The notes below the pieces were generated by a model, which saw only the letters and a program-made list of their open reading frames with translations, ran no database searches and was not told the origin of the DNA. Shown here piece after piece: positions 13,384 to 30,228 of a stretch of 32,000 bases of DNA (position 1 is the first letter of the stretch; each line of letters opens with the position of its first letter). Where the stretch lies: the NCBI GenBank assembly GCA_046497275.1, contig JAWOFX010000142.1:1-32000 (forward strand), written 5' to 3'. The DNA comes from Promethearchaeia archaeon. GTDB lineage: Archaea > Asgardarchaeota > Lokiarchaeia > Sigyniarchaeales > SOKP01. A program made the position numbers and the translations under genes.

Positions 13384-13400
13384 TATTTAAAAAGAAAAAA
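13384..13400 (-). promoter_or_regulatory. T-rich/TATA element, spacing variant TTTTTTCTTTTTAAATA
   Basis: 19 nt upstream of ATG 13364 in a divergent intergenic region. Confidence 0.55.
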
Positions 13401-13431
13401 GTAAGAGAAGAATCATAAAAAAACTCTTCAC

Positions 13432-13446
13432 CTTTTTCTTTATATA
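13432..13446 (+). promoter_or_regulatory. T-rich/TATA element CTTTTTCTTTATATA (1 mismatch)
   Basis: 23 nt upstream of a small ORF at 13470. Confidence 0.5.
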
Positions 13447-13554
13447 TCTAAAAATTACAAAATAGTGCTATGATTTCAAAACAAACTTATATATATAAAA
13501 ATCAAGTTCTTACTAACGTTGTCTTTATTTCATTTTTATAGTTAAATTTATAAA

Positions 13555-13569
13555 TTTTTTCTTTATATA
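13555..13569 (+). promoter_or_regulatory. T-rich/TATA element TTTTTTCTTTATATA (exact)
   Basis: 68 nt upstream of ATG 13638. Confidence 0.65.
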
Positions 13570-13637
13570 ATTCGAATCTCTTACTTATGATATCAAGATT
13601 CCTCTTGTGTAATGAGGGAATGGAGAAGTTTTGAGAA

Positions 13638-13934
13638 ATGAAGTGTGAATATTGCAAGAAAATTTTTCCCAGATCGAGCAAAAGGAGAGTGCGACATAGA
13701 AATACGCAAAGTTCTAATGGATCACTCAATTTTTGCTCGAAGAAATGCTATGAACAATGGCTTCAAGAGATCAAACACACCAATCTCCATTATTACGTAG
13801 TATGGAAAGTAATTGCTTTTTTTGGAAATTTTAAGTTTCGCAAACAGCTCATCCAAAGCGAAGGTATCATACCCGATCTTGGGCTCCCTAAAGATAATTC
13901 TCACTTTGCGCTTAACCTACAGGATGAATTTTAA
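13638..13934 (+). CDS. TRASH/MYM-type zinc-finger protein
   Basis: MKCEYCKK...NFCSKKC (CxxC...FCSxxC). Confidence 0.65.
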   Translation: MKCEYCKKIFPRSSKRRVRHRNTQSSNGSLNFCSKKCYEQWLQEIKHTNLHYYVVWKVIAFFGNFKFRKQLIQSEGIIPDLGLPKDNSHFALNLQDEF

Positions 13935-14081
13935 ATAGTCTCTATGATGATCCCATATTTTGGGCGAATGAGAGATATAAGAAGAATATGTGGAAAAATA
14001 TCAACGAGGGAGAATTCATCATTGTGTACCTTAATCAAGGAGAATAATTCATAAGGTAAAAATAAAAGAAGAATAAAATTA

Positions 14082-14735
14082 TTAAGAAAAATTGAACAAA
14101 TTGAACAGCACTTGACCCAATAAATCCCGAAAGGTCTCAGCAACATTTTGTCCAGTGAGAGCAATCACGGGATACACAACGAGCGTTCCATCAGCATATT
14201 CTTCCTCTTTTGGAAGTCCTAATTGCTTCTTAAACTCATCAATATTTATCTTAGTCTGAATATCGCGCTTATTGAGTTGGATTATGTAGGGTATGCGTCG
14301 AGGGCTTGCAAAACTCAGCAACTCTCGGAAACTCCTTTTATTCTGCTCTAAAAGTTCTGGCTGAGAATCAGCAACAAACATGATCCCATCGGCACCTTCT
14401 AGTACATACTCTCTTGTAGAGAGAAAGCGCTCTTGCCCTGTGCAAGTAACTACATGCACGATGATTATATACTCTTGCGTATTAATGGTAGCTTCAAAGG
14501 AAAGAAACATAGAATCCTGCCATAGAGTTCTACCGTCTTTAGTTTCAATAGAATAACCTTTAGTGACTCTGTGACTGTCAAATTTTTCTTTAAGACGAAG
14601 GAAGTTGGTGGTTTTGCCCGATTCCCCAGGGCCCCAATAGACGATCTTTAATTGGATCATATTGCCAAGAATCACCCCCCCTGTATTAGTATGGATACTA
14701 TCATACTCCGATTCTTCGATTTCATTTCTGAGCAT
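14082..14735 (-). CDS. mglA: MglA-family small GTPase (alternative start ATG 14660)
   Basis: LKIVYWGPGESGKTTN (G1), RTLWQD switch I, TCTGQ (MglA-type G3 without Asp), ADGIMFVADSQ, NKRD (G4), ALTGQNV (G5). Confidence 0.88.
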   Translation of the reverse strand: MLRNEIEESEYDSIHTNTGGVILGNMIQLKIVYWGPGESGKTTNFLRLKEKFDSHRVTKGYSIETKDGRTLWQDSMFLSFEATINTQEYIIIVHVVTCTGQERFLSTREYVLEGADGIMFVADSQPELLEQNKRSFRELLSFASPRRIPYIIQLNKRDIQTKINIDEFKKQLGLPKEEEYADGTLVVYPVIALTGQNVAETFRDLLGQVLFNLFNFS

Positions 14736-14753
14736 TGGTATGTATTCACCCCC

Positions 14754-15302
14754 TCAATCTAAAGAAATTATTTTATTACCGAATATTTCACTTTTTAGTA
14801 TCTTAATGTGTTCTTTCAGCTCTTTTTCGTTCATCTTTAAAGTACTTTTAATCGAACCTGAGTTTTCGATTTCCTTTTTAATTTTCATTGCGAAGCGTTG
14901 CATTTGTAAGACTGCTACGCCGATATTCACTTCATTATCCGATAGAAGGATGATGAGAACCTCTCGCTTTTCTTGTTGATTAAGCTCTACGTTGGTAATT
15001 GACTTAACAAACAATCGTAGATTATTATAGATAATAGAAGCACGATCCAAATAATCAGCATCGAAAAAATCTTGTCCTTGTCGCGCAACACCATAAAGCG
15101 CCGCACCAATGGAAGAGAGGTCCCAATAATTCAGATTTCTATCAAATCGCGAATCGACTGCGATAATTTTAGCATCTTGATCAACCGCGATGAGGCCATA
15201 TACGTACCCCTTTCGAGTAAGCGTGCCATAGCTATTTCGAATCTCGTCTAAAATAGTACTAATACTGTTCTTATACAAAACTTTTGGTATGGTAATGGTC
15301 AT
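14754..15302 (-). CDS. mglB: Roadblock/LC7 (MglB-like) protein; likely start ATG 15302 (MTITIPK) rather than 15398
   Basis: Roadblock pattern (GLIAVDQDAKIIA...LSSIGAALYGVARQ...VLIILL...NIGVAVLQMQR) directly upstream of mglA. The promoter motif lies inside the longer ORF's first 32 codons. Confidence 0.7.
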   Translation of the reverse strand: MTITIPKVLYKNSISTILDEIRNSYGTLTRKGYVYGLIAVDQDAKIIAVDSRFDRNLNYWDLSSIGAALYGVARQGQDFFDADYLDRASIIYNNLRLFVKSITNVELNQQEKREVLIILLSDNEVNIGVAVLQMQRFAMKIKKEIENSGSIKSTLKMNEKELKEHIKILKSEIFGNKIISLD

Positions 15303-15353
15303 ATATGTTATTATTCCATTTTTTAATTGATTAGAAGAAAAATAGAATAAAAC

Positions 15354-15368
15354 TATATAAAGAAAAAA
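15354..15368 (-). promoter_or_regulatory. T-rich/TATA element TTTTTTCTTTATATA (exact)
   Basis: 51 nt upstream of mglB ATG 15302. Confidence 0.65.
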
Positions 15369-15394
15369 CATATTCAAGAAACAGTAAATTTTCC

Positions 15395-16330
15395 TCAAAA
15401 CATTTTTAAGATTGATTTTTTAGTAAAATGAAGTTCTTTTCTCTTATTATAATCATTCTTTTCGATAAAAATACTCTTTAATTTAATAAGCATTCCATTT
15501 TCAATGATGCGGAGAATCTCGATTGCCTGCATTCCCCATACCAATACATTGATAGCTCCAGTCTCATCGCTTATCATAAATTTCAATAAAAAGGATTTGT
15601 CTCCATCTTCAGAATCAAATTCTTTCAACTCATCTATCTTTACTATGCCTGAGATTTCTTTTACAAATCCATCCTTCTGATACAGATCTCGTATTTTTAA
15701 TTCTTCCTGAGCCTCTCTTGAAGAAAACTCATTTTTTCTGGCATTAGATACCTCAATTTTTTGCAATTCCACTTTTATTTTTTTAGGAATATTATCAGGA
15801 TTTAATTGTACCTTTCCTTGTTTTGAGAGATGCACTTCTAACCGATCTTTCAATCCTTTCTTACAATAGCAATTTATAACTCTAATAATTGTTCCGATCT
15901 TGAAAAATTCAGTCTGCATAATCTTGGTATGATCATCCCAAAGCACGATTTTGGTAGTTCCTGAGGTATCTGATATCAAAAACGAACCAACATTACCTGA
16001 AGTACCGTCTTTTCGCATGAATTCATTTATGGGAAAAATACGTTTAATCTTTCCCAACAGAACAATATTTGAAAGATTTTCACGTAGATCCGATATGAGG
16101 ATTATAAATTCATTATAATCAATTTCTTGATTTGCTTCTTCGTAGAGTTCAGGATCGATTTGAGCTGACCGAATCTCGATCCCATTTTCTTTTGCGATGA
16201 GGAAAAGAGCGCCTTGAGGAGTTATAAATCCCTTAAACTCAAGTTCTTTGCGTTTTAGTTCCTCTTTTATCTCTTGTTCTGATAGTCCTGCTTCGGTCAG
16301 TTTTTGGTATACATCTTGGGCATCACTCAT
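15395..16330 (-). CDS. rpa: RPA/SSB-like OB-fold single-stranded DNA-binding protein
   Basis: N-terminal helical domain (GFITPQGALFLIAKENGI), OB1 (NIVLLGKI...F.RKDGTSGNVGSFLISDTSG..KIVLWD), OB2 (LKFMISDETGAINVLVWG). Confidence 0.85.
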   Translation of the reverse strand: MSDAQDVYQKLTEAGLSEQEIKEELKRKELEFKGFITPQGALFLIAKENGIEIRSAQIDPELYEEANQEIDYNEFIILISDLRENLSNIVLLGKIKRIFPINEFMRKDGTSGNVGSFLISDTSGTTKIVLWDDHTKIMQTEFFKIGTIIRVINCYCKKGLKDRLEVHLSKQGKVQLNPDNIPKKIKVELQKIEVSNARKNEFSSREAQEELKIRDLYQKDGFVKEISGIVKIDELKEFDSEDGDKSFLLKFMISDETGAINVLVWGMQAIEILRIIENGMLIKLKSIFIEKNDYNKRKELHFTKKSILKMF

Positions 16331-16931
16331 TTTTTTTTAATACACCTTTTTCAATCATTATATTTTTAGTACGATAAAAGGCATAGGCAGAACAATCCAT
16401 AAGCACTCGGATATTTTGCATTAACAAATTTTTTGTAGATAAAGGATCGTTCAAATCAGTGAGATAGATAACTATCGCAAGTTGCGTGGATATTCGTGGC
16501 CAAAAACTCGCAATTTGGAAAAATTGCTGAAGAATTTTCAGGTTAGTTTTTGCTCGGGGATAATCGAATACTGGAGCCAATTTATAGACTTTATGTAAAT
16601 AGATTCTTACTTTGGAATAAATACGATTCTGTTTATATCTCCACTGGATATGCGATCTTTTCCAAAATTTTCTAAAGTAATAAAACTGAGCAAAAAATTT
16701 TTCTATTATGTCCCTAACCAGAAACTCTTGAATATTGGATTCTTCAGAGATTTGACGATAAGTATCATCAGAAAGCATATCTAGCAGAACCGTCTCATCT
16801 CCGTCTTTAGTAATTGGATGACCTCGAAAAAGCGTCTTTAATACTTTCTGCCTAATCTTTCCGAAATATAAAGAGTATTTTAACTCATGGGCAGTTTTTT
16901 CCTTAATGGTTATACTAAATACATTGGTCAT
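16323..16931 (-). CDS. Hypothetical protein, possible HTH plus TFIIB/cyclin-like C-terminal repeat
   Basis: Overlaps the rpa start by 8 nt (operon). LAIVIYL...CSAYAFYRTKNI loosely resembles the TFB repeat end. Confidence 0.55.
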   Translation of the reverse strand: MTNVFSITIKEKTAHELKYSLYFGKIRQKVLKTLFRGHPITKDGDETVLLDMLSDDTYRQISEESNIQEFLVRDIIEKFFAQFYYFRKFWKRSHIQWRYKQNRIYSKVRIYLHKVYKLAPVFDYPRAKTNLKILQQFFQIASFWPRISTQLAIVIYLTDLNDPLSTKNLLMQNIRVLMDCSAYAFYRTKNIMIEKGVLKKNE

Positions 16932-16990
16932 GACTTGAACGCAAAAACTTTTTCATTCCTATTATTTTTGGATTTTTAACATATTGAGAA

Positions 16991-17005
16991 TATTTAAATA
17001 AAAAA
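16991..17005 (-). promoter_or_regulatory. T-rich/TATA element TTTTTTATTTAAATA (1 mismatch)
   Basis: 59 nt upstream of ATG 16931. Confidence 0.55.
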
Positions 17006-17067
17006 TAGAATGAAAATTTTAATGGAATGATTTTGAATGTAGGAGATTCATTTAAGAGAAATTTTTT

Positions 17068-18165
17068 TCAAAATATCATATCCAATGTCTTTTGAACGGT
17101 GCTAGGACGATTCAAATCATACTGAAAAAATCGTAAGCATTCGTAAAAGTTCTCATTAAGTTTTTTTGAATGCTTTTCTACTCGTTCTGGGTTTAAATGA
17201 TGATCCTTGCATAATAACTTAAAAATTCTCATTTTATCAGGTGGATTCCAACATAAATAATCAAATGAATCTAATACTTCAGGTAAAAGGAAAATTTTCC
17301 GAACTTCTGAAATAAGATCTCGGTCTAACTTTGAAAAGTCAAATTCATTGTGCTTTTTCGATTTTATTTTCTCGATAGTTTGATATTTTTTAATTAATTT
17401 GAGTGCTGTTTTAGGCCCGATTCCTTTAATACCTTGGAAATAATCAGTCTCAAGCATAAATGCGAGATCAACTAGTTGAAAGCGATCAATTCCTAACAAT
17501 TCTAAATTATGTTGTATATCTATTACCAATGGAACTAAACGAGTATATGTCCATTTATTTTGCACTTTTCTCCTCAGAGATTTTGATAAGTTTTGAATTA
17601 GAAATGGGCACCCAAACAGCAATGAATCAAAATCCTGCGAATTAGAAAAGTTAGCGATACCTTTTTTGACTAAGTGGGCACATTGCGATTCTGCTGAGGC
17701 GGGCGATTCGACTACGGGAACCCCAATCGCATGAAGAAGCTCTTTCGATTCTTTCATGATATTCGGCCATAAGTATTCTTTTGAAAGAGCGATAGTCCTT
17801 GCTAATTCTCTATTTCCGCTATTTATAGCATTTTTATATCGCTTTTGGGTGAACAAAAAATCATTAAGTTGATTTTTAGTAATTTTTCGCTTTAGTGGAG
17901 AAACTCTGCCATCAAAACAAAAAATTGGAAGGATGTTTTTGCTGTAATAAAATTTGATCCTGTAGAGAATTCCGTATAAATGAGAAATGACTCGTTGCGT
18001 ACGATCAAGAATTAAATTAGTTTCTGTATTTAATGTTGGATTTTTATGGCTGAAGTTGAGCAATCCCATGATTATGTTCGGTGCATCAACAGAAATTATT
18101 TTTCCCTTTAATTCTTGGAAAGTAATTTTTCTTCGCTGAATAATAGGATCTAATTTGATTCCCAT
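17068..18165 (-). CDS. fen: Flap endonuclease FEN1/XPG-family paralogue with C-terminal PIP box
   Basis: ISVDA, SHLYG, FCFDG, SAESQCAHL, SQDFDSLLFG, ETDY, GIKGIGPKTALKLI (H3TH), QKTLDMIF. Confidence 0.88.
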   Translation of the reverse strand: MGIKLDPIIQRRKITFQELKGKIISVDAPNIIMGLLNFSHKNPTLNTETNLILDRTQRVISHLYGILYRIKFYYSKNILPIFCFDGRVSPLKRKITKNQLNDFLFTQKRYKNAINSGNRELARTIALSKEYLWPNIMKESKELLHAIGVPVVESPASAESQCAHLVKKGIANFSNSQDFDSLLFGCPFLIQNLSKSLRRKVQNKWTYTRLVPLVIDIQHNLELLGIDRFQLVDLAFMLETDYFQGIKGIGPKTALKLIKKYQTIEKIKSKKHNEFDFSKLDRDLISEVRKIFLLPEVLDSFDYLCWNPPDKMRIFKLLCKDHHLNPERVEKHSKKLNENFYECLRFFQYDLNRPSTVQKTLDMIF

Positions 18166-18185
18166 AGATTTTTTATTAAATATAG

Positions 18186-18201
18186 AAATAAAAAGAAAAA
18201 A
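18186..18201 (-). promoter_or_regulatory. T-rich/TATA element, variant TTTTTTCTTTTTATTT
   Basis: 20 nt upstream of FEN1 ATG 18165 in a divergent region. Confidence 0.45.
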
Positions 18202-18375
18202 TAGAAATATAAGAAATATATTTTATTTATAAAATGCCAATTGGCGTTAATTTCAACAATTAAAGCATCTATCTAACTAAATTAGAGTTAATTCATTAAA
18301 ATCATTATTTAAGGGGATTTTTTCATAGATGCTTAAATTCGATATTAATCGTATTAAATTTTATCCAAAAAAAAA

Positions 18376-18390
18376 ATTTTTCTTTAAATA
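18376..18390 (+). promoter_or_regulatory. T-rich/TATA element ATTTTTCTTTAAATA (1 mismatch)
   Basis: 56 nt upstream of ATG 18447. Confidence 0.6.
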
Positions 18391-18446
18391 AAGTCAAAAT
18401 GTTGTATCTTTATATTAATAAAATATTCTATAATGAGGGAACATTA

Positions 18447-18809
18447 ATGGGAGAAGATATAGTGTTTTATGATGAACCTGGCAGGAGTAAAAAATATGTA
18501 AAAATCATATTTATTGGGATCTTAGCATTTATTGCAATCTATTTTCCACTTTTCGGAAATAATCTGCGGTATCAGATCGGAGGGATGCTTGATACACTCT
18601 TTAATTTTATTGGGATTATCTGCTTGTTCTTAGGGGGAATAAATATTGCCATCGGATTTTTAGGACTAGTTGCAAAAAAATTCTATTTGGGAAATGTGGT
18701 CATAGGGGCACTCTTACTGTGGATAGGATGTTGGCTTACAGGGATTGTGATAAATTTATTCGGAGTAATTTTTGGCGGCTCCGAAGTTTCTAATCCTGGA
18801 TATCATTAA
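18447..18809 (+). CDS. Small 3-TM membrane protein (possibly VirB2/CedA1-like pilin); likely start ATG 18447 rather than 18399
   Basis: GAGG SD precedes 18447, and ATG 18399 is only 8 nt from the TATA element. Gly-rich hydrophobic helices with an AKK loop. Confidence 0.65.
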   Translation: MGEDIVFYDEPGRSKKYVKIIFIGILAFIAIYFPLFGNNLRYQIGGMLDTLFNFIGIICLFLGGINIAIGFLGLVAKKFYLGNVVIGALLLWIGCWLTGIVINLFGVIFGGSEVSNPGYH

Positions 18810-18815
18810 AATTAG

Positions 18816-18865
18816 TCTTTTTCTTTTTTTCTAATTTAATCTAATTGTAACAAGAGAGAAAAAAA
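18816..18865. terminator. Bidirectional T-tract terminator region between convergent genes
   Basis: TCTTTTTCTTTTTTTCT after the + gene stop and an A-run complementary tract for the - gene. Confidence 0.4.
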
Positions 18866-18888
18866 TAGTGTATTTATGAATTTTGAAT

Positions 18889-19113
18889 TTAAACACCTAT
18901 TCGAAAATATCTCATCCCTGTTTGGAGTCCACAAACTGCAATTAAGAGTATAGAAATGCCTAACACAAAGTACATACTACTCCTTTTATAACGTGGAAGG
19001 GTCATCATTCCGAGTACTCCGATGATAAGCCCTAGCACCCCCATGATCGAGCCGAAAGCGATCAAAAACTCTATTGCTTCTCCAATCATATCAAAATAGT
19101 TATTATAAATCAT
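18889..19113 (-). CDS. 74-aa two-helix membrane protein (pilin-like candidate)
   Basis: FLIAFGSIMGVLGLIIGVLGMM-TLPRYKRSS-MYFVLGISILLIAVCG: two hydrophobic helices with a basic loop. Confidence 0.7.
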   Translation of the reverse strand: MIYNNYFDMIGEAIEFLIAFGSIMGVLGLIIGVLGMMTLPRYKRSSMYFVLGISILLIAVCGLQTGMRYFRIGV

Positions 19114-19137
19114 AATGTACTAATATTCTGTTAAATC

Positions 19138-19152
19138 TATATAAAAAAAAAA
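19138..19152 (-). promoter_or_regulatory. T-rich/TATA element TTTTTTTTTTATATA (1 mismatch)
   Basis: 24 nt upstream of ATG 19113. Confidence 0.5.
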
Positions 19153-19188
19153 TTAATAGTTTTTATCTTGGAAGTTTTATTATTGCTA

Positions 19189-19203
19189 TTTTTTCTTTAA
19201 ATA
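19189..19203 (+). promoter_or_regulatory. T-rich/TATA element TTTTTTCTTTAAATA (exact)
   Basis: 33 nt upstream of TTG 19237 and 45 nt upstream of ATG 19249, in a divergent region. Confidence 0.7.
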
Positions 19204-19236
19204 GCCAAACATATTCACTTCATTAAATATAGTTAT

Positions 19237-19587
19237 TTGAAAAAAAATATGCGACAAATTGAAGAAATAGGGATCTGTCCTAATTGCGACTGCTCGTTAA
19301 TGATTTATAAGACTTCAAACTATAAGCGGTTTGTTAAGTGCGAAATTTGTGGCCATTCCTACCCTCTTCCCAAACGAGGGCATATTGATAATTCAGCACT
19401 TATATGTCCCTTGCGAGGGTATCCTATTTTAATTGTTCAAAAACGAGACAGTAAAGCATATTTCTGGACAGATAGACCATGTTTTAGCTGCGTCCATATG
19501 GGCACATGCGAGCCTGTCAAGCAATTAGAAGAAGAATTTACTGAATTGGGAGTGTATGGATATGATCAAGCAGGGCAAAACACATAA
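19237..19587 (+). CDS. Standalone topoisomerase-IA-type zinc-ribbon repeat protein
   Basis: CPNCDCSLMIYKTSNYKRFVKCEICGHSYPLP.....CPLRGYPIL...FWTDRPCFSC resembles archaeal topo IA C-terminal Zn ribbons. Confidence 0.7.
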   Translation: MKKNMRQIEEIGICPNCDCSLMIYKTSNYKRFVKCEICGHSYPLPKRGHIDNSALICPLRGYPILIVQKRDSKAYFWTDRPCFSCVHMGTCEPVKQLEEEFTELGVYGYDQAGQNT

Positions 19588-20569: not shown

Positions 20570-20665
20570 TTCTTTTTTTCTCTATTTTTTAGATAAAAAG
20601 TAATTTTAATTATTTTATTAATAGAATTAGATGAAAAAAAATAAAAAAGAGATAGTAAAAAAGGA
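20570..20665. terminator. Bidirectional T-tract terminator region
   Basis: TTCTTTTTTTCTCTATTTTTT after the + gene stop and A-runs at about 20634-20662 for the convergent radA. Confidence 0.4.
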
Positions 20666-20676
20666 TAATTCAATTT

Positions 20677-21897: not shown

Positions 21898-21950
21898 TGT
21901 GTTTTACACCTCCTGTGCATAATTATATTATTAAAATTACAAGCTCATCA

Positions 21951-22450: not shown

Positions 22451-22471
22451 ATATGATAGTGTATATAGACT

Positions 22472-22486
22472 TATTTAAAGAAAAAG
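22472..22486 (-). promoter_or_regulatory. T-rich/TATA element CTTTTTCTTTAAATA (1 mismatch)
   Basis: 21 nt upstream of ATG 22450, a leaderless spacing. Confidence 0.6.
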
Positions 22487-22514
22487 ATCTTTACTTCATT
22501 AGATTAAATCGTTA

Positions 22515-23234: not shown

Positions 23235-23602
23235 AAATCTTCACTCTCTAATAGCTTTAACACTTCTTGTTTGATCTGTTCTACCTCATCAATACTGTTT
23301 TGAGAATCATCATTAGAGTTGCTTGATTCTTGAGAATTATGTATGTCTCCTGTATTTAATTGCTCAAGCATTAAAAATGTGAGTAGTGAATCACTCATCA
23401 CATTCTGACTTGAACGGGATTTTCGAAAAGAAAAATATCCCGTTGTCTTAGCCCCTGAAGATGATTTCTTTCTTGCCCGTAAAAACAAAAACAGCCCAAT
23501 ACCAATTCCTAAAACAAGTAATGAGATGGTTGGATCTTTATTATAGAACATAATAAAAACTAATACTAATGTTAAATAGCAAAATGCCTTCATACTCACC
23601 AC
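23231..23602 (-). CDS. Small 2-TM membrane protein with polar/acidic tail
   Basis: Two N-terminal hydrophobic segments. Overlaps both neighbours (operon). Confidence 0.65.
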   Translation of the reverse strand: MVSMKAFCYLTLVLVFIMFYNKDPTISLLVLGIGIGLFLFLRARKKSSSGAKTTGYFSFRKSRSSQNVMSDSLLTFLMLEQLNTGDIHNSQESSNSNDDSQNSIDEVEQIKQEVLKLLESEDL

Positions 23603-24333
23603 TGCCCTCGTTCAATTTTTTGTGATTTTTTCTTTTTCGGAGAATGGCGTCTACGATATAGTTCAGAGGATCTAATGGAAGATCCTTGTTTTGAGATTTT
23701 TAATCTAATGTATTCAATAATTTTTCGTATTCCAATGAATGAATATTTGAATATATAATATCCAATCCCAATCAGTATATAAAAGAGAAAGCTGTAATAA
23801 TAGGGAATGATTATATACCAACTAGCCGAATATACAATCAGTGTTGAAAAAAGGACTAATCCAATTTGGTAGATGGAATAGCGAGGATCGTTATTAAATA
23901 CTCTCCCTATGTTATATATATCTGTACCTGAGGGTGAAGATCCTATTAAAAAAGAAACCAAACAAAATGCGGCAATAACTCTATAAATATCCTCAAAAGC
24001 AGGTGAAAGAAAAACGAATAAACAATAAAATGCTAAATAACTAATAATAAGTAATGGAGCTATCCCTGTTAAAAAGGATTGAAGAAAAGTCATACGTTTA
24101 AAATCTTTTAGTTCTACACTTCCATTTAAGCGTCTATAACTAACTTTAAAACGACCAGGGGTTCCGCCGGTTATCAAAAGCATTACAAAATGACTGAGTT
24201 CATGTATAAAGATTCCAAGCACTCCTAAAATTTTAACGATAACCGTAAGTTTGCGATTTTTATTATATATTAAGTATCTTACTAATAAGCCTGACGTAAA
24301 TACGATCGGAAATAAGATAAGATCTTCAAACAT
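23596..24333 (-). CDS. M50-like membrane zinc metalloprotease
   Basis: GIFIHELSHF (HExxH) within a TM segment, multiple TMs, SPSGTD candidate third-ligand motif. Confidence 0.75.
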   Translation of the reverse strand: MFEDLILFPIVFTSGLLVRYLIYNKNRKLTVIVKILGVLGIFIHELSHFVMLLITGGTPGRFKVSYRRLNGSVELKDFKRMTFLQSFLTGIAPLLIISYLAFYCLFVFLSPAFEDIYRVIAAFCLVSFLIGSSPSGTDIYNIGRVFNNDPRYSIYQIGLVLFSTLIVYSASWYIIIPYYYSFLFYILIGIGYYIFKYSFIGIRKIIEYIRLKISKQGSSIRSSELYRRRHSPKKKKSQKIERGQW

Positions 24334-24354
24334 AATGCTAAAATAAGCTTAGAT

Positions 24355-24369
24355 TATATAAAGAAAAAA
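24355..24369 (-). promoter_or_regulatory. T-rich/TATA element TTTTTTCTTTATATA (exact)
   Basis: 21 nt upstream of ATG 24333 in a divergent region, a leaderless spacing. Confidence 0.7.
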
Positions 24370-24801
24370 TAATAGTATAAATGATGGATATAGAAAATGT
24401 ATGAGTTATGAATAGATTAAGATTTGTTAATCTTATTAAATAAATAATTATAACATTTACCAGTGCTACAAATTTTTGAAAATTATAAGGAAAACATTTA
24501 CCTCGAGTTAGATCGCTCTAAATTTTTATGAAAAGAATCCTTTTCTCATTTTCAAGAGGGGTAGTCTAGATTAAGTGATCTGCAAGTTTTTATTTGAGAA
24601 TTCTTTATATTTTTATCTGTAAACAAAATTAAGAACCATTTATATTATATATAAAAAATGTTCAACTGTTCTATAAATCTGATTATAATTTTCTAAAATT
24701 TATTCAATAACAGTAATATTTAAAAAGACTACTCCCACTCTCTTCTATCTTAAGTTAATTTGAAAACATGATCAAAAAAATAGAAAAAGTGTTCAAAAAG
24801 T

Positions 24802-26061
24802 ATGGCATCACAAGATTATCCTAAAAATTTTTCAGTGGGAGATTTAGACTTAGAATGTGAAATATGTCATTCTTCAGAAATTAAAGAGACAGAGCAAGGT
24901 TATGTATGTGCTGATTGTGGGCTTGTATTAGAAATTCAGAAAATGGAATATCATCATCCATACAAAGAGGAGCGAATACAGCACGCAGTATTAGACAGAA
25001 CTCAAATTGGTAATACGCGTGAACGGTATCAAAATCAATTCTCGCGAAAATTTCATAAACTCAATAAAATAAATCATACTTCATCACGGGAAGATCCCAT
25101 ATATATGAGAGCAAAAGTAGAGATTTCCAGACTCATTAATGGACTTGAAATGTCGTCTAATATCAAGCGAAGTATACTAGAAAAGTATAAAAATGCACGG
25201 GATGAACTTGCTTCGGGTACAAAATTTCGCAATCCCGATAAATTAGTCCCTGGAGTGATGTACTATCATACAAAGATGAATGGCCAGCCGCTTGATGAGT
25301 CACAACTTCTGGATGTTTCAAAATTAGATAAAAAAGATTTTAATCGTCTTAAATTGAAGATTGGTGAATTTATGCCGGAATATTATTCACGTGATCGAAA
25401 AGAATACATTTCTAATCGCATAATGCAAATTCGTGAAGAATTTGAACTTGATATGGGCTTTTATCATAAAGCACAAGCGATACTTGAAAAATTATGGGAG
25501 GAAATTAAATGTACGAAAGATGACGTCGTGGCGGGGTTAGTAGGTTCAATAGTTGCATTATGCCACTATCAAGATGAAGTGAATGTAAATTCTATTTGTA
25601 AAGCCCTTCACATTCAAATGAGCACTATACAGTCTCAAGTAAAACGCAGAATCATTGATCAATTTCATGTACCAGGATTTCAGAGCTTAGTACGCTCTGC
25701 TGATCTATTAAAAAAAATCATGGTGAAATTAGGATTTTTCACAAAAAAAGATGCTGGAGTCTCAAAATTCTCAAAAAAAGATGAAGAAAAGAAAAATGGG
25801 CAAAACGAAGATGAAAAATATTTGGATTCAGAGATAGTATATATCGAATTACCGAAAGTGATGCCAGATACTCATTCTAGTCAACCTTTTGATCATTCCA
25901 TATTCGCTGTACGAGATGAAAATTCGTGTGATCCTACTATCCTCACGATTTCGCTCTTATATAGCCTAAAACAAAAACCGCAAAAAGCACAAAAACAAAA
26001 GATTAAATTCGAAATATCTCGCTACCACTATCCAAAAGGTCCCCCGATTTTGTATTGTTAA
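24802..26061 (+). CDS. tfb: Atypical transcription factor B (TFB/TFIIB) paralogue
   Basis: Zn ribbon CEICHS...YVCADCGLVL, two cyclin-like repeats, no recognisable B-reader (EWRAF), about 100-aa C-terminal extension. Confidence 0.82.
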   Translation: MASQDYPKNFSVGDLDLECEICHSSEIKETEQGYVCADCGLVLEIQKMEYHHPYKEERIQHAVLDRTQIGNTRERYQNQFSRKFHKLNKINHTSSREDPIYMRAKVEISRLINGLEMSSNIKRSILEKYKNARDELASGTKFRNPDKLVPGVMYYHTKMNGQPLDESQLLDVSKLDKKDFNRLKLKIGEFMPEYYSRDRKEYISNRIMQIREEFELDMGFYHKAQAILEKLWEEIKCTKDDVVAGLVGSIVALCHYQDEVNVNSICKALHIQMSTIQSQVKRRIIDQFHVPGFQSLVRSADLLKKIMVKLGFFTKKDAGVSKFSKKDEEKKNGQNEDEKYLDSEIVYIELPKVMPDTHSSQPFDHSIFAVRDENSCDPTILTISLLYSLKQKPQKAQKQKIKFEISRYHYPKGPPILYC

Positions 26062-26158
26062 GTTTTATGAAGTTCAGGAAAACTTAAATAATCCTGATCT
26101 AGTGTTTCAAGGTTTTTTTAATTTTTGTTTCTATACGAGATTTTTAATTGATTATCTG

Positions 26159-26173
26159 TTTTTTCTTTAAATA
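26159..26173 (+). promoter_or_regulatory. T-rich/TATA element TTTTTTCTTTAAATA (exact)
   Basis: 50 nt upstream of ATG 26224. Confidence 0.65.
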
Positions 26174-26223
26174 CTCTGAGGAGAAGGGAATCACAATAAA
26201 ATAATTATACAAGTATAATTTTT

Positions 26224-29200
26224 ATGACAAAACCAAAATTTTCTAGAAAACCGCTATTAATAATAACAGTTTTAGTATGTTGCTTTTTAATATCTTCTTT
26301 AAACTTCAAACCAAAAAGAGAACAGATAAATGGAGAATTCAGAGAAAATATTCACCCTTCTGGAGATATGAACAATTATGATTTTATTTCTACAGTGATG
26401 GATGACTTAACCAATATATATGGAGAATATGGATATTTTCCTACATATTATGAACCTTCTATTCAAAGCACATATTTTGCACTTCAAAGTTATTTATCAT
26501 TAGGCAGAATAAGTGATCTCAATGAAACAGAGATTATATCCTTTCTAATAGATCATTATGATACAGAGCAAGGATATTTTATTGATGACTATGCGATTCG
26601 GTATTTGGATACTGATTTTGAGGCATTTTATCTTCCTTTAAACACTTTACTGGAAGTAAACTGCTATGCGCTTCTCTCTTTAAAAATCCTTAACCGATTA
26701 GATTTGATCAACAATCAAAGTTTTATTGATTTTATTTGGAGTTGTTTTAATTCTGATGAAGGCGCATTTATAGGACAACCATATGATGTAGATCTTCATC
26801 CTAAATTCAAAATTCCTACATTAGATAATACCTATTATGCAGTGAAAATACTTGATCTCCTACTCGATACTTGGGATGAATATTATCCTCAAAGATCTCA
26901 ATTAATTACGTTTATTGAAGATTGCCAAACATTTATCACAAAAGAAGCGCAATATGGAGGATTTAAGAATGATCTGGTAAGCGGGTTTAGTTCATTGAGA
27001 ATAACAGATCCAAATATGCTCTCCTCGTTTTATGCATTGGAGACTCTTAATACTTTCAATGCGTTGGAAGCCATTAATATTGACGCTTTCAATCAATTCT
27101 TGAAAGATCTATACAATATAGAAAATTTCTTTTTTGAATTATCATGGTTTCCTGACCTTCCTACTCATGGCAGACCATTTGCAACCAGTATTGGATTATC
27201 TCTCTCATTGCTCACTGGTTATAACGAAATCAATGAAATGGGAATAGTTAATTATCTAAAAAGTATTCGCAACAATATTGGAGTATGGAAGAGCTCAATA
27301 AATGATCTCCAATTTGAATTGATTGATACATTCCAAGTACTTCGCTCTCTATATGACTCGAGGCATATTAATGATTTCACAAATGGCGAGAAGGATGCGA
27401 TTGCAGATGGACTTGAACATTTTAAGAGTTACCAGAGTTATTGCAATACACCCACCGATTATATGAGTATATCTGCTCTTTCATCCATAGCAAAATCATT
27501 CAAAATTTTTAATAGAGAAACAGATTTAGAGATCCAAGAATTATTTGTGTATTTGCGTGATGCATATATTAGTGATCCTGAAAATGAACCGCGAAGTTTT
27601 TATGGATATACAAATATGGATGCTAAATATTTATTTTTCAGAATCTATCCTATTGAATATTACAATTTGGGAACTTATTCTTCTCTGGAATATATAGATT
27701 ACTTATTTAATCATAAATTCGTTTATCAGGCCCTTACAGCTTTAAAAGATTTATACAAACTAGATGATTTTGACACTTTCTATGCTCTTAATGAATTGCT
27801 TGATCAAACAGTTTTAGCACAAATTATTAATCCCAATTCAGATAAATTTGGAGCATTTCTTCCTAATTCTCTTTTACTTAATTTTGATCAAGATCTTCAA
27901 GACAAAACGGTATTTTTAGAGCAATCATTTTATGCGATTCGTACTATGGAATTACTTAGAGATTATTTGGAATTAGGATCCTTAGAGGAATTATTATTGG
28001 ATTCTGAGGCTTTAAAAGTATATATATTTAATACTTTTGAGGCACCGGGATCTTATTGCTATTCCATGCCCCGTGCGACCAGTGACGTGAATATCATTCT
28101 TAAAAACACTTATTATGCTAGTTATATAATGAAATCTCTTGACTCATTTACACAAGATACGCAAAAAATCAAGAATTATATTATGGATCATCTTGACTAC
28201 AATGATATTGAAAACATTTATTATTCTTATCTCCTCGATCAATTGTTAGAGTTAGATATAGAATTTCCTATTGAATCAGTCCAGGCTTTAATCCAGGAAC
28301 TTTATTGCGAGGATTTGAATTGTTTTTATCTAACTACAGAAAAAAATAAGATTAATCAACAGATACTATATTGGATCTGTGATATGGCTAAAAATGATAA
28401 ATACCGTTATAACATTAATTTCGATGATGTTATTCTCTTGGATTCATATTCTATGATCACTGTAGAAATACAAAATCTTATCTTAAATAGCATTGGTCAA
28501 TATGGTTCTCTCAAGTTCGAAAGTGACCAATTGGGGGAATATGCCTTTACTGAATTTGGTGAAGGAGTGTTCCGATGTAATGTTTTTGTGCCATTTGATG
28601 TTTCTAATTATCCTACAATTGAAGGAAATATCTCGCGCTATGAATTTTCTACGAAACAAGAGGTGATTCCTATTAGTTTTAACACAACTTATGAACTCTT
28701 CTCAGAGATTAACTTCTTAGAAAATGCTAATACAATCAATATTGAAATTAACTGTTCATTGAATATCGCCTCAGGAAGTAGAAATTTACCAGATGGAGAA
28801 TCATTTATGCATATTTATCATGAAGGAGAATATATTGCCACAGATAGTCTCTCGTATCAACAAAACGGTGATTATACAAAGTATTTTTTAGAGTATGAAT
28901 ATACTCAGTTCGGAAACTATTCTTTTGAATTATACGTGAATGATGGCCTTAACGAAAGCGATCATTTCATTGGAAAAATTATGACACAACATAGCTACCA
29001 ACTGATCTCTGAAGTGTCAATTTCCCGCATTAACACTACCATTAATTTTATTATCAACGCGTCTATGATGGTGGAAGGGAGTGAAATCCAACCATTCTCA
29101 TACGGTTCAGCATTTTTAAAAATATATAGAGAAGGTACTTATATTCAACAAAAAAATTTTATTGGAGAAGACCGCGACACTTATACTCATTTTGAGACTA

Positions 29201-29466
29201 CATATATGATGATCCAAACAGGAAATTATTCATTTGAACTTTATCTTGATGATGGATTGAATCCAAGCCAGAATCTGATCTACGAATATTTTACCTCCTA
29301 TGGAAATGAACCACAAGATCCAACCGATCCACAACCCAATGGAACAAATGAACCTCAAATTCCACTAATTCTTTTCTATCCTATCATACTCCTCCCCTTA
29401 TTTGGATCCTCTGGAGCAATTGCATTTACATTTCTGAAGAAAAAGCAACTGAAAACTCTAAAATAA
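26224..29466 (+). CDS. Large cell-surface protein: prenyltransferase/squalene-cyclase-like repeats, two Ig-like repeats, Pro-rich linker, C-terminal TM
   Basis: Signal peptide. Repeats such as GAFIGQP..PTLDNTYYAVKIL, GGFKND..SSFYALETL and GAFLP..LEQSFYAIRTM. GNYSFELY.(N/D)DGLN occurs twice. EPQDPTDPQPNGTNEPQ linker, then TM and KKK. Confidence 0.75.
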   Translation: MTKPKFSRKPLLIITVLVCCFLISSLNFKPKREQINGEFRENIHPSGDMNNYDFISTVMDDLTNIYGEYGYFPTYYEPSIQSTYFALQSYLSLGRISDLNETEIISFLIDHYDTEQGYFIDDYAIRYLDTDFEAFYLPLNTLLEVNCYALLSLKILNRLDLINNQSFIDFIWSCFNSDEGAFIGQPYDVDLHPKFKIPTLDNTYYAVKILDLLLDTWDEYYPQRSQLITFIEDCQTFITKEAQYGGFKNDLVSGFSSLRITDPNMLSSFYALETLNTFNALEAINIDAFNQFLKDLYNIENFFFELSWFPDLPTHGRPFATSIGLSLSLLTGYNEINEMGIVNYLKSIRNNIGVWKSSINDLQFELIDTFQVLRSLYDSRHINDFTNGEKDAIADGLEHFKSYQSYCNTPTDYMSISALSSIAKSFKIFNRETDLEIQELFVYLRDAYISDPENEPRSFYGYTNMDAKYLFFRIYPIEYYNLGTYSSLEYIDYLFNHKFVYQALTALKDLYKLDDFDTFYALNELLDQTVLAQIINPNSDKFGAFLPNSLLLNFDQDLQDKTVFLEQSFYAIRTMELLRDYLELGSLEELLLDSEALKVYIFNTFEAPGSYCYSMPRATSDVNIILKNTYYASYIMKSLDSFTQDTQKIKNYIMDHLDYNDIENIYYSYLLDQLLELDIEFPIESVQALIQELYCEDLNCFYLTTEKNKINQQILYWICDMAKNDKYRYNINFDDVILLDSYSMITVEIQNLILNSIGQYGSLKFESDQLGEYAFTEFGEGVFRCNVFVPFDVSNYPTIEGNISRYEFSTKQEVIPISFNTTYELFSEINFLENANTINIEINCSLNIASGSRNLPDGESFMHIYHEGEYIATDSLSYQQNGDYTKYFLEYEYTQFGNYSFELYVNDGLNESDHFIGKIMTQHSYQLISEVSISRINTTINFIINASMMVEGSEIQPFSYGSAFLKIYREGTYIQQKNFIGEDRDTYTHFETTYMMIQTGNYSFELYLDDGLNPSQNLIYEYFTSYGNEPQDPTDPQPNGTNEPQIPLILFYPIILLPLFGSSGAIAFTFLKKKQLKTLK

Positions 29467-29504
29467 ATTTTTTTCACCTTTTCTTTTTCTGATTTTTTCT
29501 TTTT

Positions 29505-30194
29505 ATGCAACTTCATTCTAATCTAATAGAGAATATTATGAATTATTCTGACTTTTTAGATAAGGATGAAAAAGAGTACTCCAAAGATCTGAATACAAGA
29601 TCTACCACCCAAAAATCAACGATATATGAGACCATCCACACTATTCTCAAAATTCTTAACATTTTTCATGGTAATTATGACAAGAAGCTTAACCTCGAAA
29701 AATTATTTAATAAGATTAGTATTCCTGTCCAAGAGAGAGAAGATTATCTCAGACTTATTCTGGAATTTCAAGCCCTCTTTCATACTACTTTCTACACTCA
29801 TTCGCTTGAAGTAAAAGAAATCAATTCAACTATGTATCTTGTCTGTAGACATTTTAAAAATGCCTTACAAAATAATCCAAAAAAAAGTCAGGACCCTAAA
29901 CAAATCACAATCTCATCTCGCGATCTCTCTTTATTAAATGATATTGTCTATATGTTTACTAATATTAAGCGTGGGAGGGGGTTTGATCTCAAAGAAGACT
30001 CTTCAGAAATCGTAAAAGGAATAAAAAGATTACGAAAAAATCACCCTTACATTTTTTTTTCGAATGGTCATGGATATATATATCCTACAGAGTTTGGTGT
30101 CAAATTAGGGCAAAAAACTAATACTTATTTAAAATGTAATCGCCCTATTGACACATTTATTATCGAGGATTGTACAATTACAATTGAGGAATAA
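29505..30194 (+). CDS. Hypothetical protein, possible winged-helix (start may be ATG 29538)
   Basis: 229-aa ORF. GYIYPTEFGVKLG resembles a wHTH wing end. Confidence 0.6.
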   Translation: MQLHSNLIENIMNYSDFLDKDEKEYSKDLNTRSTTQKSTIYETIHTILKILNIFHGNYDKKLNLEKLFNKISIPVQEREDYLRLILEFQALFHTTFYTHSLEVKEINSTMYLVCRHFKNALQNNPKKSQDPKQITISSRDLSLLNDIVYMFTNIKRGRGFDLKEDSSEIVKGIKRLRKNHPYIFFSNGHGYIYPTEFGVKLGQKTNTYLKCNRPIDTFIIEDCTITIEE

Positions 30195-30213
30195 GGATGA
30201 GCGAATGTATTGA

Positions 30214-30228
30214 TTTTTTCTTTTAATA
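30214..30228 (+). promoter_or_regulatory. T-rich/TATA element, variant TTTTTTCTTTTAATA
   Basis: 45 nt upstream of hef ATG 30274. It could also be the terminator of the upstream gene. Confidence 0.5.

Follow-up and report, generated by a model that had tools for sequence, protein, structure and literature searches.

A T-rich element abutting the TATA box and a divergent TFB paralogue share an accessory gene island in a Loki-type Asgard archaeon

The main finding of this study is that an accessory gene island in a Loki-type Asgard archaeon carries both a sharply defined 15-nt motif, TTTTTTCTTTAWATA, upstream of its genes and a gene for a very divergent homologue of the transcription factor TFB. 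We hold with moderate confidence that the motif is the core of a specialised promoter class, which the island TFB paralogue would read as part of a two-step switch. That this paralogue is the reader we infer from the sequence evidence set out below.

Results

A preliminary description of the window (the whole 32,000-nt stretch of DNA analysed) had reported exact copies of TTTTTTCTTTAWATA at 13555(+), 15354(-), 19189(+), 21951(-), 24355(-) and 26159(+). All six were recovered, against 0 expected from 100 dinucleotide-preserving shuffles. At up to two mismatches the window holds 19 matches (3.75 ± 1.9 expected; no shuffle attained 19), among them every one-mismatch and spacing-variant site listed in that description (13384-, 13432+, 16991-, 18187-, 18376+, 19138-, 22472- and 30214+). 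The whole genome (3.85 Mb) has 14 exact copies, 10 of which lie within one gene island broken by the assembly over three contigs (fragments C13, C42 and C158), and the probability that at least six of the 14 fall inside the 16.8 kb from 13384 to 30228 is 2e-11. Off this contig, four copies are found on C42 and C158, where the genes are those of the same island in a relative. One further site was found at 29493(+). The original estimate of a regulon of about 18 kb ending at 30228 was too small: copies also lie past the window end at 32949(+) and 33758(-), which brings the motif-bearing region to about 24 kb on this contig, and in a contiguous relative it covers about 39 kb.

Outside the island the picture is different. 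The first 12.3 kb of the window contain two weak two-mismatch matches, at 504(-), the one seen earlier near 503-517, and at 12332(+). No motif precedes the neighbouring housekeeping genes for an aminotransferase, carbamate kinase, OTCase, AOR and S30e in the scan at up to two mismatches, in agreement with the earlier reading. Among 300 promoter-positioned TTTAWATA boxes of the genome, TTTTTTC is the sole over-represented upstream 7-mer, and those copies lie in the island. In this genome TTTTTTCTTTAWATA does not serve as a general promoter. The island and its motif sites are as follows.

12165 to 32000, either strand: part of the island in the window, about 20 genes
13384 to 13398, minus: TTTTCTTTTTAAATA variant, 19 nt upstream of the ATG of a 399-aa gene (12165-13364)
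13432 to 13446, plus: one-mismatch motif, 23 nt upstream of a 23-codon ORF (13470); divergent partner of 13384(-)
13555 to 13569, plus: exact motif, 68 nt upstream of a 98-aa DUF7576 gene (13638-13934)
15354 to 15368, minus: exact motif, immediately past the RPA-like gene's stop codon; 51 nt to the orthologue-supported start (15302) of a 182-aa gene, with an Arf-like GTPase gene
16991 to 17005, minus: TTTTTTATTTAAATA variant, 59 nt upstream of the 202-aa / RPA-like operon
18187 to 18201, minus: two-mismatch variant, 21 nt upstream of the FEN1-like gene; leaderless
18376 to 18390, plus: one-mismatch motif, 56 nt upstream of a small membrane protein gene (orthologue-supported start, 18447)
19138 to 19152, minus: one-mismatch motif, 24 nt upstream of a 74-aa membrane protein gene (18889-19113)
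19189 to 19203, plus: exact motif, upstream of the Zn-ribbon protein / 337-aa operon; kept in five genomes, at 34-36 nt
21951 to 21965, minus: exact motif, upstream of the RadA-like gene; kept in four genomes
22472 to 22486, minus: one-mismatch motif, 21 nt upstream of a 122-aa gene; leaderless
24355 to 24369, minus: exact motif, 21 nt upstream of the 245-aa / 123-aa / AAA-ATPase operon; leaderless
26159 to 26173, plus: exact motif, 50 nt upstream of a gene for a 1080-aa alpha-alpha-toroid protein; kept in four genomes
29493 to 29507, plus: TTTTTTCTTTTTATG variant, 30 nt to the orthologue-supported start of a 229-aa gene
30214 to 30228, plus: one-mismatch motif, 45 nt upstream of a 720-aa Hef-like helicase gene

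The geometry of these sites is that of promoters. All 17 copies on the contig point toward a start codon, as the preliminary description had held for strand. Its range of 19-68 nt before starts resolves into two groups when distances from the motif end are measured to starts backed by orthologues, a leaderless one (19, 21, 21, 21, 23 and 24 nt) and a leadered one (30, 45, 45, 50, 51, 56, 59 and 68 nt); it fails at the RadA-like gene if counted to the first ATG, 134 nt from 21951(-), and holds for a likely ATA start at 21897 (53 nt). Across 64 sites in five genomes, a pyrimidine occupies +21 after the TATA box at 48 and an A occupies +22 at 49, and the A is kept at 39 of the 48 motif sites that have no nearby ATG; downstream of ordinary TATA boxes there is no such signal. 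This pyrimidine-A step fits transcription starts, predicted here from sequence, and not 3' ends, and lies within the 20-25 nt at which a start had been expected. In three leaderless genes the predicted start coincides with the A of the ATG (for the FEN1-like gene, at 18165). Relative to the predicted starts the TTTAWATA box occupies -29 to -22, matching archaeal TATA placement, centred about 26 nt upstream.

Conservation singles out the same nucleotides. At orthologous promoters of other genera (up to five genomes) the 15 motif nucleotides are 82-97% identical and the flanks 33-46%, and only those 15 are conserved at the same genes in other Loki-type genera, an outcome that favours the regulon on the very point, conservation in Lokiarchaeia, that had been proposed as a check. 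The 8-mer TTTAWATA is invariant or nearly so across all copies, and variants proper to single promoters are conserved between genera as well: the A variant at 16991(-) recurs at the 202-aa / RPA-like operon in G006 and G005, and at the 229-aa gene, where relatives have TTTTTTCTTTTTATA for the TTTTTTCTTTTTATG variant at 29493(+), a TTTTTATA variant is kept in G006 and G020. The small membrane protein gene starting at 18447 has its motif 57 nt upstream in G006, and the G020 orthologue of the 399-aa gene has an exact motif 74 nt upstream.

The promoters depart from the norm immediately 5' of the TATA box. The canonical archaeal BRE is A-rich and abuts this box (PMC7289017). At the motif promoters no A-rich element was found 5' of the TATA box on either strand, and the BRE position is taken by TTTTTTC, with a zero and invariant spacing. 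It could be argued that no dedicated factor is needed to explain this, a T-tract joined to a perfect TATA box being simply a strong, rigid core promoter that doubles as an oligo-T terminator in a compact and highly expressed island. Oligo-T tracts terminate archaeal transcription, about 9 of the 17 contig copies lie 10-120 nt past the stop of a same-strand gene on the ORF map, and a small excess of the motif over a reversed control (19 versus 8 in five genomes) is retained in genomes without the TFB-like gene. We nevertheless regard this explanation as improbable. Seven or eight of the 17 copies (eight had been counted initially) stand in divergent intergenic regions with no upstream gene to terminate, the single C of the T-rich half is kept at its constant place in 13 of 16, the word keeps to the island and is not scattered across highly expressed housekeeping genes, and variants proper to single promoters recur from one genus to another.

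The preliminary description had suggested an alternative TFB or a dedicated activator. For the former the island provides a concrete candidate, whose gene is accompanied by motif clusters in at least nine genomes.

24802 to 26061, plus: TFB/TFIIB paralogue, 419 aa, with zinc ribbon, two cyclin folds, an MSTIQSQVK recognition helix and an extension of about 110 aa at the C-terminus
24719 to 24754, plus: upstream element of its gene, a TTTAAAAAG box and, after it, a block shared by seven loci

All 45 sequences compared keep its four zinc-ribbon cysteines (C19, C22, C36 and C39). The match to PF08271 (E 1.9e-4) falls short of Pfam's cut-off, PF00382 gives no Pfam match at E 0.01 or better, and a profile search retrieves the Pyrococcus TFB core (1d3u_B and 1ais_B, E 6e-5). 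The AF2 model of the core (pLDDT about 90) superposes on 1d3u_B, from Pyrococcus TFB, with Z 17.4 and rmsd 3.0 Å over 197 of 201 residues; Brf1 and Brf2 chains are also among the structural matches (Z 12.7-15.7). The C-terminal extension is modelled with low confidence, and no similarity to Brf extensions was detected in it. The predicted structure thereby confirms the product as a very divergent TFB/TFIIB homologue with a two-cyclin-fold core. Where all nine canonical TFBs of the genome have TEVT(L/I/V)R(S/N)R.K in the BRE-recognition helix, the paralogue has MSTIQSQVK, and this rewritten helix is among the best conserved stretches of its family (M273 and S274 in 45/45, Q279 in 44/45). The genome has a single TBP gene alongside these nine TFBs and the island paralogue, so promoter selectivity must lie elsewhere than in TBP. 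The B-reader RAF motif, present in all nine, is absent from the paralogue in the alignment, and its linker is about 20 residues shorter than theirs; the paralogue might thus be insufficient for initiation by itself and could work jointly with a canonical TFB, as Sulfolobus TFB3 does. Its own gene has no T-rich motif upstream in any of seven loci and carries instead the TTTAAAAAG box and a block with the consensus AAACTCCTWCC ... CTTAAG. With this distinct conserved element in place of the motif, the circuit would be a two-step cascade.

These features bear on a second explanation, in which another DNA-binding protein, an activator or repressor at the BRE position, reads TTTTTTC and an ordinary TFB initiates. 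The paralogue lacks a canonical B-reader, the island has a number of small, conserved zinc-ribbon proteins, and in Sulfolobus the promoters induced by damage contain a T-rich hexamer, ANTTTC, to which Orc1-2 binds (PMC6061795). Candidates for the part would be one of the island's zinc-ribbon proteins (116 aa, DUF1922, DUF7576) or a damage regulator resembling Orc1-2. The Orc1-2 box is located elsewhere in its promoters and requires an A; the motif word here, TTTTTC, has T at position 1 and abuts the TATA box. The T-rich element here joins the TATA box directly, at the very place where TFB binds, an ordinary TFB would need to tolerate a pyrimidine-rich BRE, and the rewritten yet highly conserved recognition helix would be left unexplained. 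We therefore consider a reader other than the TFB paralogue unlikely.

Motif and paralogue also travel together. Of 90 exact copies in G006, G020, G024, G016 and G019, 40 share a contig with a TFB-like gene, and further paralogous islands with such a gene also hold motif clusters. The contiguous relative G006 has 19 copies in 39.4 kb, with 0 in the 19 kb to the left and 0 in the 12 kb to the right. Co-localisation is partly circular, since most comparative loci were located through the TFB-like gene and only the motif counts made pattern-first are unbiased. In G002, where no TFB-like gene was found, exact motifs stand at the ThiF, 387-aa and 417-aa genes; the contig that carries them starts inside the island. 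Among TFB-like copies with variant helices there is no clear matching change in the motif.

Within the window the island encodes paralogues of RPA, FEN1, RadA and a DEAD helicase, an Arf-like GTPase, an AAA ATPase and many proteins of unknown function; it reaches the contig end, including the DUF1922 gene and a Hel308-like helicase, and its products further include membrane proteins, an E1-like enzyme and a HerA/FtsK-type ATPase. It is patchy within one genus and multi-copy in some genomes, its left flank varies between genomes and assemblies break inside it. TFB genes are on record from viruses and mobile elements of Asgard archaea (bioRxiv 10.1101/2021.07.29.453957), and the island could in principle be an integrated element or provirus that brought its own TFB and promoters rather than a host regulon. 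We give this little credence: no integrase, capsid or terminase was seen and Pfam scans returned no integrase, 18 of the 20 island proteins scanned have no PHROG match (the AAA ATPase at 22515-23234 has two, both marginal, E 4.4e-4), IMG/VR contigs contain no relative of the TFB-like family and there is no tRNA gene in the window. Moreover, identities of the RadA-like (75-80%) and Hel308-like (70-74%) proteins are about those of the neighbouring housekeeping AOR (69-77%), and a rearranged island is present in other families of the order. There was likewise no indication of an anti-phage defence system: PADLOC returned generic SF2 helicases only (HamB, Cas3 and PbeA) for two island helicases, four marginal matches for the AAA ATPase (best E 1.6e-4) and none for the other seven proteins tested.

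Discussion

Several known systems resemble the proposed one in part. In Sulfolobales, the DNA-transaction genes of a DNA-damage regulon, which includes DNA import (Ced, HerA/VirB4-type ATPase) and pili, are governed by a TFB paralogue together with a short T-rich word in their promoters, and the factor gene is induced first (PMC6101594, PMC6061795). The likeness to the proposed circuit lies in these features. However, TFB3 is truncated and works with TFB1, whereas the island TFB retains both cyclin folds as well as the zinc ribbon. The reader of ANTTTC is Orc1-2 and not a TFB, and ANTTTC does not adjoin the TATA box, unlike the island element in the BRE position. The Sulfolobus acidocaldarius TFB2 cell-cycle regulon offers a full-length TFB paralogue that occupies a defined promoter set and drives a transcription wave, but TFB2 and TFB1 promoters are reported to have near-identical TATA boxes and similar BREs and to differ mainly in spacing (bioRxiv 10.64898/2026.09.06.749720), whereas the island promoters stand sharply apart in the sequence at the BRE position and the targets cluster around the factor gene. 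The many TFB paralogues of haloarchaeal genomes are thought to confer promoter selectivity, according to work cited in PMC7289017. A multiplicity of TFBs is common to both cases, with nine canonical ones and the island one here. To our knowledge, haloarchaeal selectivity is combinatorial with several TBPs and has no crisp paralogue-specific BRE, in contrast to the one TBP and one sharply defined motif of this genome. Bacterial and phage alternative sigma factors, and TFBs encoded by archaeal viruses and elements, offer a parallel in that a gene cluster comes with an initiation factor of its own and a private promoter to match, but the island factor has a TFIIB fold and the island shows no evidence of being a virus or mobile element. 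Finally, Brf1, Brf2 and Rrn7/TAF1B combine a zinc ribbon, two cyclin folds and a C-terminal extension and serve a separate promoter class; the resemblance is architectural only, and archaea have one RNA polymerase.

In our preferred model, TTTAWATA would be the TATA box bound by the single TBP, and the island paralogue, replacing the nine ordinary TFBs, would read the T-rich half as a T-rich BRE and recruit RNA polymerase to about 20 promoters, where transcription would begin at the A 22 nt past the TATA box. These promoters would govern expression of the accessory island, about 40 kb with genes for recombination and DNA handling, including a second RadA, RPA, FEN1, Hef-like and Hel308-like helicases, the HerA/FtsK-type ATPase, the E1-like enzyme and membrane proteins. 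Where a same-strand gene stops a short way upstream, the T-run would probably serve as its terminator too. An inducing signal would turn on the TFB paralogue, whose binding would in turn activate the whole island. If this is true, a Loki-type Asgard archaeon, among the closest relatives of eukaryotes, would possess a sigma-factor-like switch.

Results

The promoter motif and its distribution

The preliminary description of this region proposed that a shared noncanonical promoter, the 15-nt element TTTTTTCTTTAWATA in which a T6C run is fused to a TTTAWATA TATA box, defines a regulon of about 18 kb ending at 30228 and is read by an alternative TFB or a dedicated activator. All six exact matches in the window were found where that description had placed them, and dinucleotide-preserving shuffles give an expectation of none. 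A search allowing up to two mismatches yielded 19 matches vs. 3.75 expected, including every near-copy already described and one more. Only 14 exact copies exist in the whole genome (a 3.85-Mb assembly of 188 contigs), and the probability that at least 6 of the 14 would lie within the same 16.8 kb is ~2e-11. In the first 12 kb, the motif precedes none of the neighboring housekeeping genes, which encode an aminotransferase, a carbamate kinase, OTCase, oxidoreductases, AOR, and ribosomal protein S30e. However, the proposed end and extent of the cluster proved too narrow, as copies continue beyond the window, which ends 32 kb into a contig of 36.4 kb (C13), and on two other contigs (C158 and C42). 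The additional copies on C13 are as follows.

29493 (+), near-copy at up to two mismatches
32949 (+), contig position past the window end, one-mismatch copy
33758 (-), contig position past the window end, one-mismatch copy

Alignment of 16 copies from C13 delimits a conserved block of exactly 15 nt; the position immediately 5' of it is weakly biased toward A. The copies share only these 15 nt and are therefore not fragments of a repeat, which rules out a repeat or a mobile-repeat remnant. Nor is the element the general promoter of this genome, as judged from 300 promoter-positioned TTTAWATA boxes: the bases 5' of these boxes are just slightly A-rich, and TTTTTTC is the sole over-represented upstream 7-mer, with 9 occurrences vs. 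no more than 2 for any other. A canonical BRE is A-rich and abuts the TATA box (PMC7289017); in the motif, all seven BRE positions are occupied by T6C, and the canonical order is found on neither strand.

When starts are placed using orthologues, there is a start codon downstream of every copy. The distance from motif end to start codon is 19-24 nt for six genes (399-aa, 23-codon ORF, FEN1-like, 74-aa, 122-aa, and 245-aa operon) and 30-68 nt for the remaining genes apart from the RadA-like gene, whose first ATG is 134 nt away. Pooling 64 copies from five genomes reveals an A at +22 after the TATA box in 49 of the 64 and a pyrimidine at the position before it in 48 of the 64; the A is kept in 39 of the 48 copies without a nearby ATG, and no such peak is present at ordinary TTTAWATA boxes of the same genome. 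This putative initiator signal is the strongest internal evidence that the motif functions as a promoter. The TATA box would lie at -29 to -22 relative to the predicted start, which is the usual geometry in archaea, and in the three leaderless genes with the shortest gaps transcription is predicted to begin at the A of the ATG itself. Predicted start positions include 24333, 22450, 18165, 26195, and 21929. Two of the downstream genes call for further detail.

13470-13541 (+), 23-codon ORF starting 23 nt past the motif copy at 13432, which would therefore be leaderless; a second, exact copy 85 nt farther on, ahead of a DUF7576 gene, makes these tandem promoters
21816-21914 (-), in-frame coding sequence for the N-terminal HhH part (ISDLSQIKGINSRHIKLLRESGISTAE) of the RadA-like protein, 5' of the first ATG, with no ATG, GTG, or TTG downstream of the preceding stop
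21897, ATA codon of the RadA-like gene, with a strong AGGAGGTG 9 nt 5' of it

The last two features suggest that the RadA-like gene uses a noncanonical ATA start, 53 nt from the motif.

The motif, described from one genome, is conserved at the same promoters across genera. Island gene order is maintained in five family members (G006, G020, G004, G005, and G008) with protein identities of 30-80%, and the same orthologous promoters carry the motif: 49-59 nt upstream of the 202-aa/RPA operon, 21-24 nt for the FEN1-like gene, 34-36 nt for the zinc-ribbon gene, 128-155 nt for the RadA-like gene, 37-60 nt for the toroid protein gene, and 21 nt for the 245-aa gene. Orthologous intergenic regions aligned on the motif are 82-97% identical within the 15 nt vs. 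33-46% outside, which is the chance level for that base composition. Even promoter-specific variants recur in different genera: TTTTTTATTTAAATA precedes the RPA operon, and TTTTTTCTTTTTATA precedes the 229-aa gene. In a different family of the order, the closed genome G038 has a rearranged island (loci L045-L047, G038:C1:1715000-1774999) with the RadA-like protein (66%), the TFB-like protein (24%), and a neighboring 1069-aa protein. Several promoters of that island (family f2) display T8-10 GCT TTTATAAA ~22 nt 5' of the ATG, possibly a sister form of the motif with a related T-run-C-TATA design.

Extent and nature of the island

Motifs in the window precede second copies of genes that handle DNA. 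Their products are an OB-fold protein resembling RPA, a nuclease of the FEN1/XPG type, a RadA/Rad51 recombinase that carries an additional HhH domain at its C terminus, and a Hef-type DEAD helicase, and each has a housekeeping counterpart elsewhere in the genome at 30-45% identity. Other island genes encode an Arf-like GTPase, an AAA ATPase, small membrane proteins, small zinc-ribbon proteins, a protein of 1080 aa that includes a prenyltransferase-like toroid segment, and, at the contig end, a Hel308-like helicase. On C158, exact copies are found before a 417-aa gene and before a divergent 387-aa/ThiF/E1-like pair, adjoined by a HerA-like ATPase, while C42 has one exact copy before a 234-aa gene. 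In the nearly closed relative G006, orthologues of the C158 and C42 genes lie with those of the window genes in one contiguous island of 39.4 kb with 19 copies at up to one mismatch, flanked by 19 kb (left) and 12 kb (right) with no motif. Because G006 keeps these orthologues together, we assign 10 of the 14 exact copies to a single island, split by the assembly into three pieces. Assembly breaks in two genomes fall near the start of the Hel308-like gene and inside the HerA-like gene (contig ends C13:36408, C42 of 4.3 kb, C158:29901, and G002:C43:1), a pattern that may reflect differences between strains, paralogous repeats, or coverage that is uneven across the island.

For the island proteins without an assigned family, Pfam, PDB sequence search, and a protein atlas gave only ATPase and toroid leads, the large ATPase being of HerA/FtsK/CedB type according to the atlas (score 0.90, a lead only). 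One gene pair is retained in all versions of the island, including that of the most distant family (G031).

14082-15302 (-), Arf-like small GTPase paired with a conserved 182-aa protein

These may be a GTPase and its partner in a recombination island. With a second RadA, RPA, and FEN1, a pair of helicases, an ATPase of the HerA/FtsK/CedB type, membrane proteins, and an E1-like enzyme, the gene set suggests a role in recombination and perhaps in transferring DNA.

Integrase, capsid, or packaging genes were not seen in the island. PHROG profiles matched none of 18 of the 20 island proteins scanned, with two marginal matches for the AAA ATPase; PADLOC returned only generic helicase and marginal AAA ATPase matches, and IMG/VR contigs contain no relative of the TFB-like family. 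A virus or defense reading was rejected, as these three resources yielded nothing specific. Vertical descent with losses fits, because the core enzymes diverge between genomes about as much as the neighboring AOR (RadA-like 75-80% and Hel308-like 70-74% identity vs. 69-77%), and, given its patchy occurrence in multiple copies and the breaks in its assembly, the island may also be mobile. TFB genes have been described in Asgard viruses and mobile elements (bioRxiv 10.1101/2021.07.29.453957). We consider it very unlikely that the island represents a mobile element bringing promoters of its own, a reading that would be compatible with the mechanism favored in the Discussion.

A candidate reader and its linkage to the motif

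The island encodes a TFB-like protein.

24802-26061 (+), gene for a 419-aa TFB paralogue
24719-24754 (+), TTAAAAAG-like box directly followed by a conserved AAACTCCTWCC ... CTTAAG block, upstream of that gene

Although Pfam yields only a weak match to the TFIIB zinc ribbon, a ten-homologue profile matches the Pyrococcus TFB core (E 6e-5). A structure model from 45 homologues (pLDDT near 90 in the core) can be superposed on TFB as it occurs in the Pyrococcus TBP-TFB-BRE/TATA complex (chain 1d3u_B; Z 17.4, rmsd 3.0 A, 197/201 residues), and its leading structural matches are all TFIIB, TFB, or Brf chains. Together, these results identify the modeled protein as a true TFB-family member with a zinc ribbon and two cyclin folds. 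The layout is Brf-like, since these domains are followed by a C-terminal extension (~110 extra residues, poorly modeled, with a conserved KGPP at the end). Relatives are confined to Lokiarchaeota/Promethearchaeota metagenome genomes (the database names of the homologues), mostly annotated as hypothetical. The 3.85-Mb genome has nine canonical TFB genes (contigs C34, C1, C136, C31, C47, C178, C51, C124, and C44) and a single TBP gene (C172), a large TFB expansion.

In alignments, the paralogue lacks the B-reader motif of the nine canonical TFBs and has a shorter linker; because the B-reader is missing, a TFB3-like helper role is possible. The BRE is read by a helix-turn-helix in the second cyclin fold (PMC7289017). 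The recognition helix is MSTIQSQVK in the paralogue vs. TEVT(L/I/V)R(S/N)R.K in all nine canonical TFBs, with glutamine substituting for both arginines, and it ranks with the most strongly conserved segments in the family (M273 and S274 in 45/45, Q279 in 44/45). The predicted complex of TBP with the TFB-like core (residues 95-312) scored 0.01 in a run without controls and weighs neither for nor against their pairing. Of the two readers originally proposed, the alternative TFB has gained a candidate with a changed helix; a different regulator docking on T6C is retained as an unlikely rival. Copies with QSR (G006 C1, G006 C11b, and G022 C58) have few or no motifs nearby, and no alternative promoter word was found near them, while motif clusters are still present with QAQ, QGQ, and NYQ.

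Two of the QSR copies in G006 (loci L031-L034) have near-duplicate surroundings with almost identical intergenic stretches and no T-rich motif cluster nearby; an element that carries a TFB and is repeated or mobile may account for them.

G006:C1:138793-139986 and G006:C11:280289-281206, TFB-like copies with helix MSTIQSRVK, one of which has an internal TAA

A search of 24 other genomes of the family detected close homologues of the paralogue in 17, often in multiple copies; counting every match at E ≤ 0.001, the number is 21. Further paralogous islands that include a TFB-like gene (G024 C50, G024 C49, G014 C102, G023 C174, and G006 C7) have 7-13 motif copies per 20 kb, a linkage that is partly circular as most comparative loci were picked via the TFB gene. 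When motifs were found first, by pattern search, 40 of 90 exact copies in five genomes from five genera were on a contig with a TFB-like gene. At genome level, the ratio of motif to reversed pattern is ~2 with or without the TFB-like gene because background scales with AT content; such counts do not discriminate, and therefore clustering alone is informative. Genes for the TFB-like protein, the island-type RadA, and the Hel308-like helicase are either all found or all missed, and none was found in G001, G002, G009, and G010 (93-99% complete). G002 has the motif without a detected TFB-like gene, and the rest of its island is probably unassembled, since its contig begins within the island.

The motif is never found upstream of the factor's own gene (seven loci of five genomes). 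The AAACTCCTWCC ... CTTAAG block is common to the seven loci and may be an operator or a 5'-leader element controlling the factor; a conserved GTGAT lies 5-8 nt before the ATG. Absence of the motif, together with this different upstream block, suits a cascade in which the factor would be switched on by other means.

Discussion

The reading that we favor, with somewhat better than even confidence, is that TBP would occupy the TATA box of the motif, the island TFB paralogue would read T6C via its altered helix, transcription would start 22 nt downstream of the box, and the T-run would additionally terminate the upstream gene, where present. That the motif is simply a strong promoter-terminator junction needing no dedicated factor seems improbable to us. 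A broader proposal, which we regard as a long shot, is that in Loki-type Asgard archaea a dedicated Brf-like TFIIB factor recognizes a T-rich BRE of its own and thereby activates a complete second recombination set (RadA paralogue, RPA, FEN1, Hel308, Hef, HerA/CedB-type ATPase, and E1-like enzyme).

Bacterial sigma factors read differing -35/-10 boxes, and whether archaeal TFB paralogues choose promoters through differing BREs is still largely an open question; we know of no crisp paralogue-specific BRE for the best-studied cases, haloarchaea and Sulfolobus TFB2 and TFB3. Alternative TFB regulons as such are known: those of haloarchaeal TFBs (cited in PMC7289017) and the Sulfolobus TFB3 regulon with its Orc1-2 box ANTTTC (PMC6101594, PMC6061795), while Sulfolobus TFB2 has BREs reported to be similar to those of TFB1 (bioRxiv 10.64898/2026.09.06.749720). 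In the literature searched, no paper was found to mention the motif for archaea or to report a T-rich BRE or this TFB-like family, and none describes a TFB-specific promoter or a regulon of a TFB paralogue from Asgard archaea. The present case supplies a motif of 15 bp, a candidate reader whose helix change is defined, and ~20 natural target promoters with conserved variants, a testable system for which three recombinant proteins and short DNAs suffice.

The island also includes the second RadA clade previously noted in Asgard genomes (PMC12722695). An accessory recombination island is delimited in the archaea closest to eukaryotes, with a handle on when the set is used. If the broader proposal is true, these organisms would have a programmed "recombination or DNA-exchange mode," with promoter classes divided among TFIIB-like factors, which would prefigure the division of TFIIB-like factors in eukaryotes as well as a specialized recombination programme.
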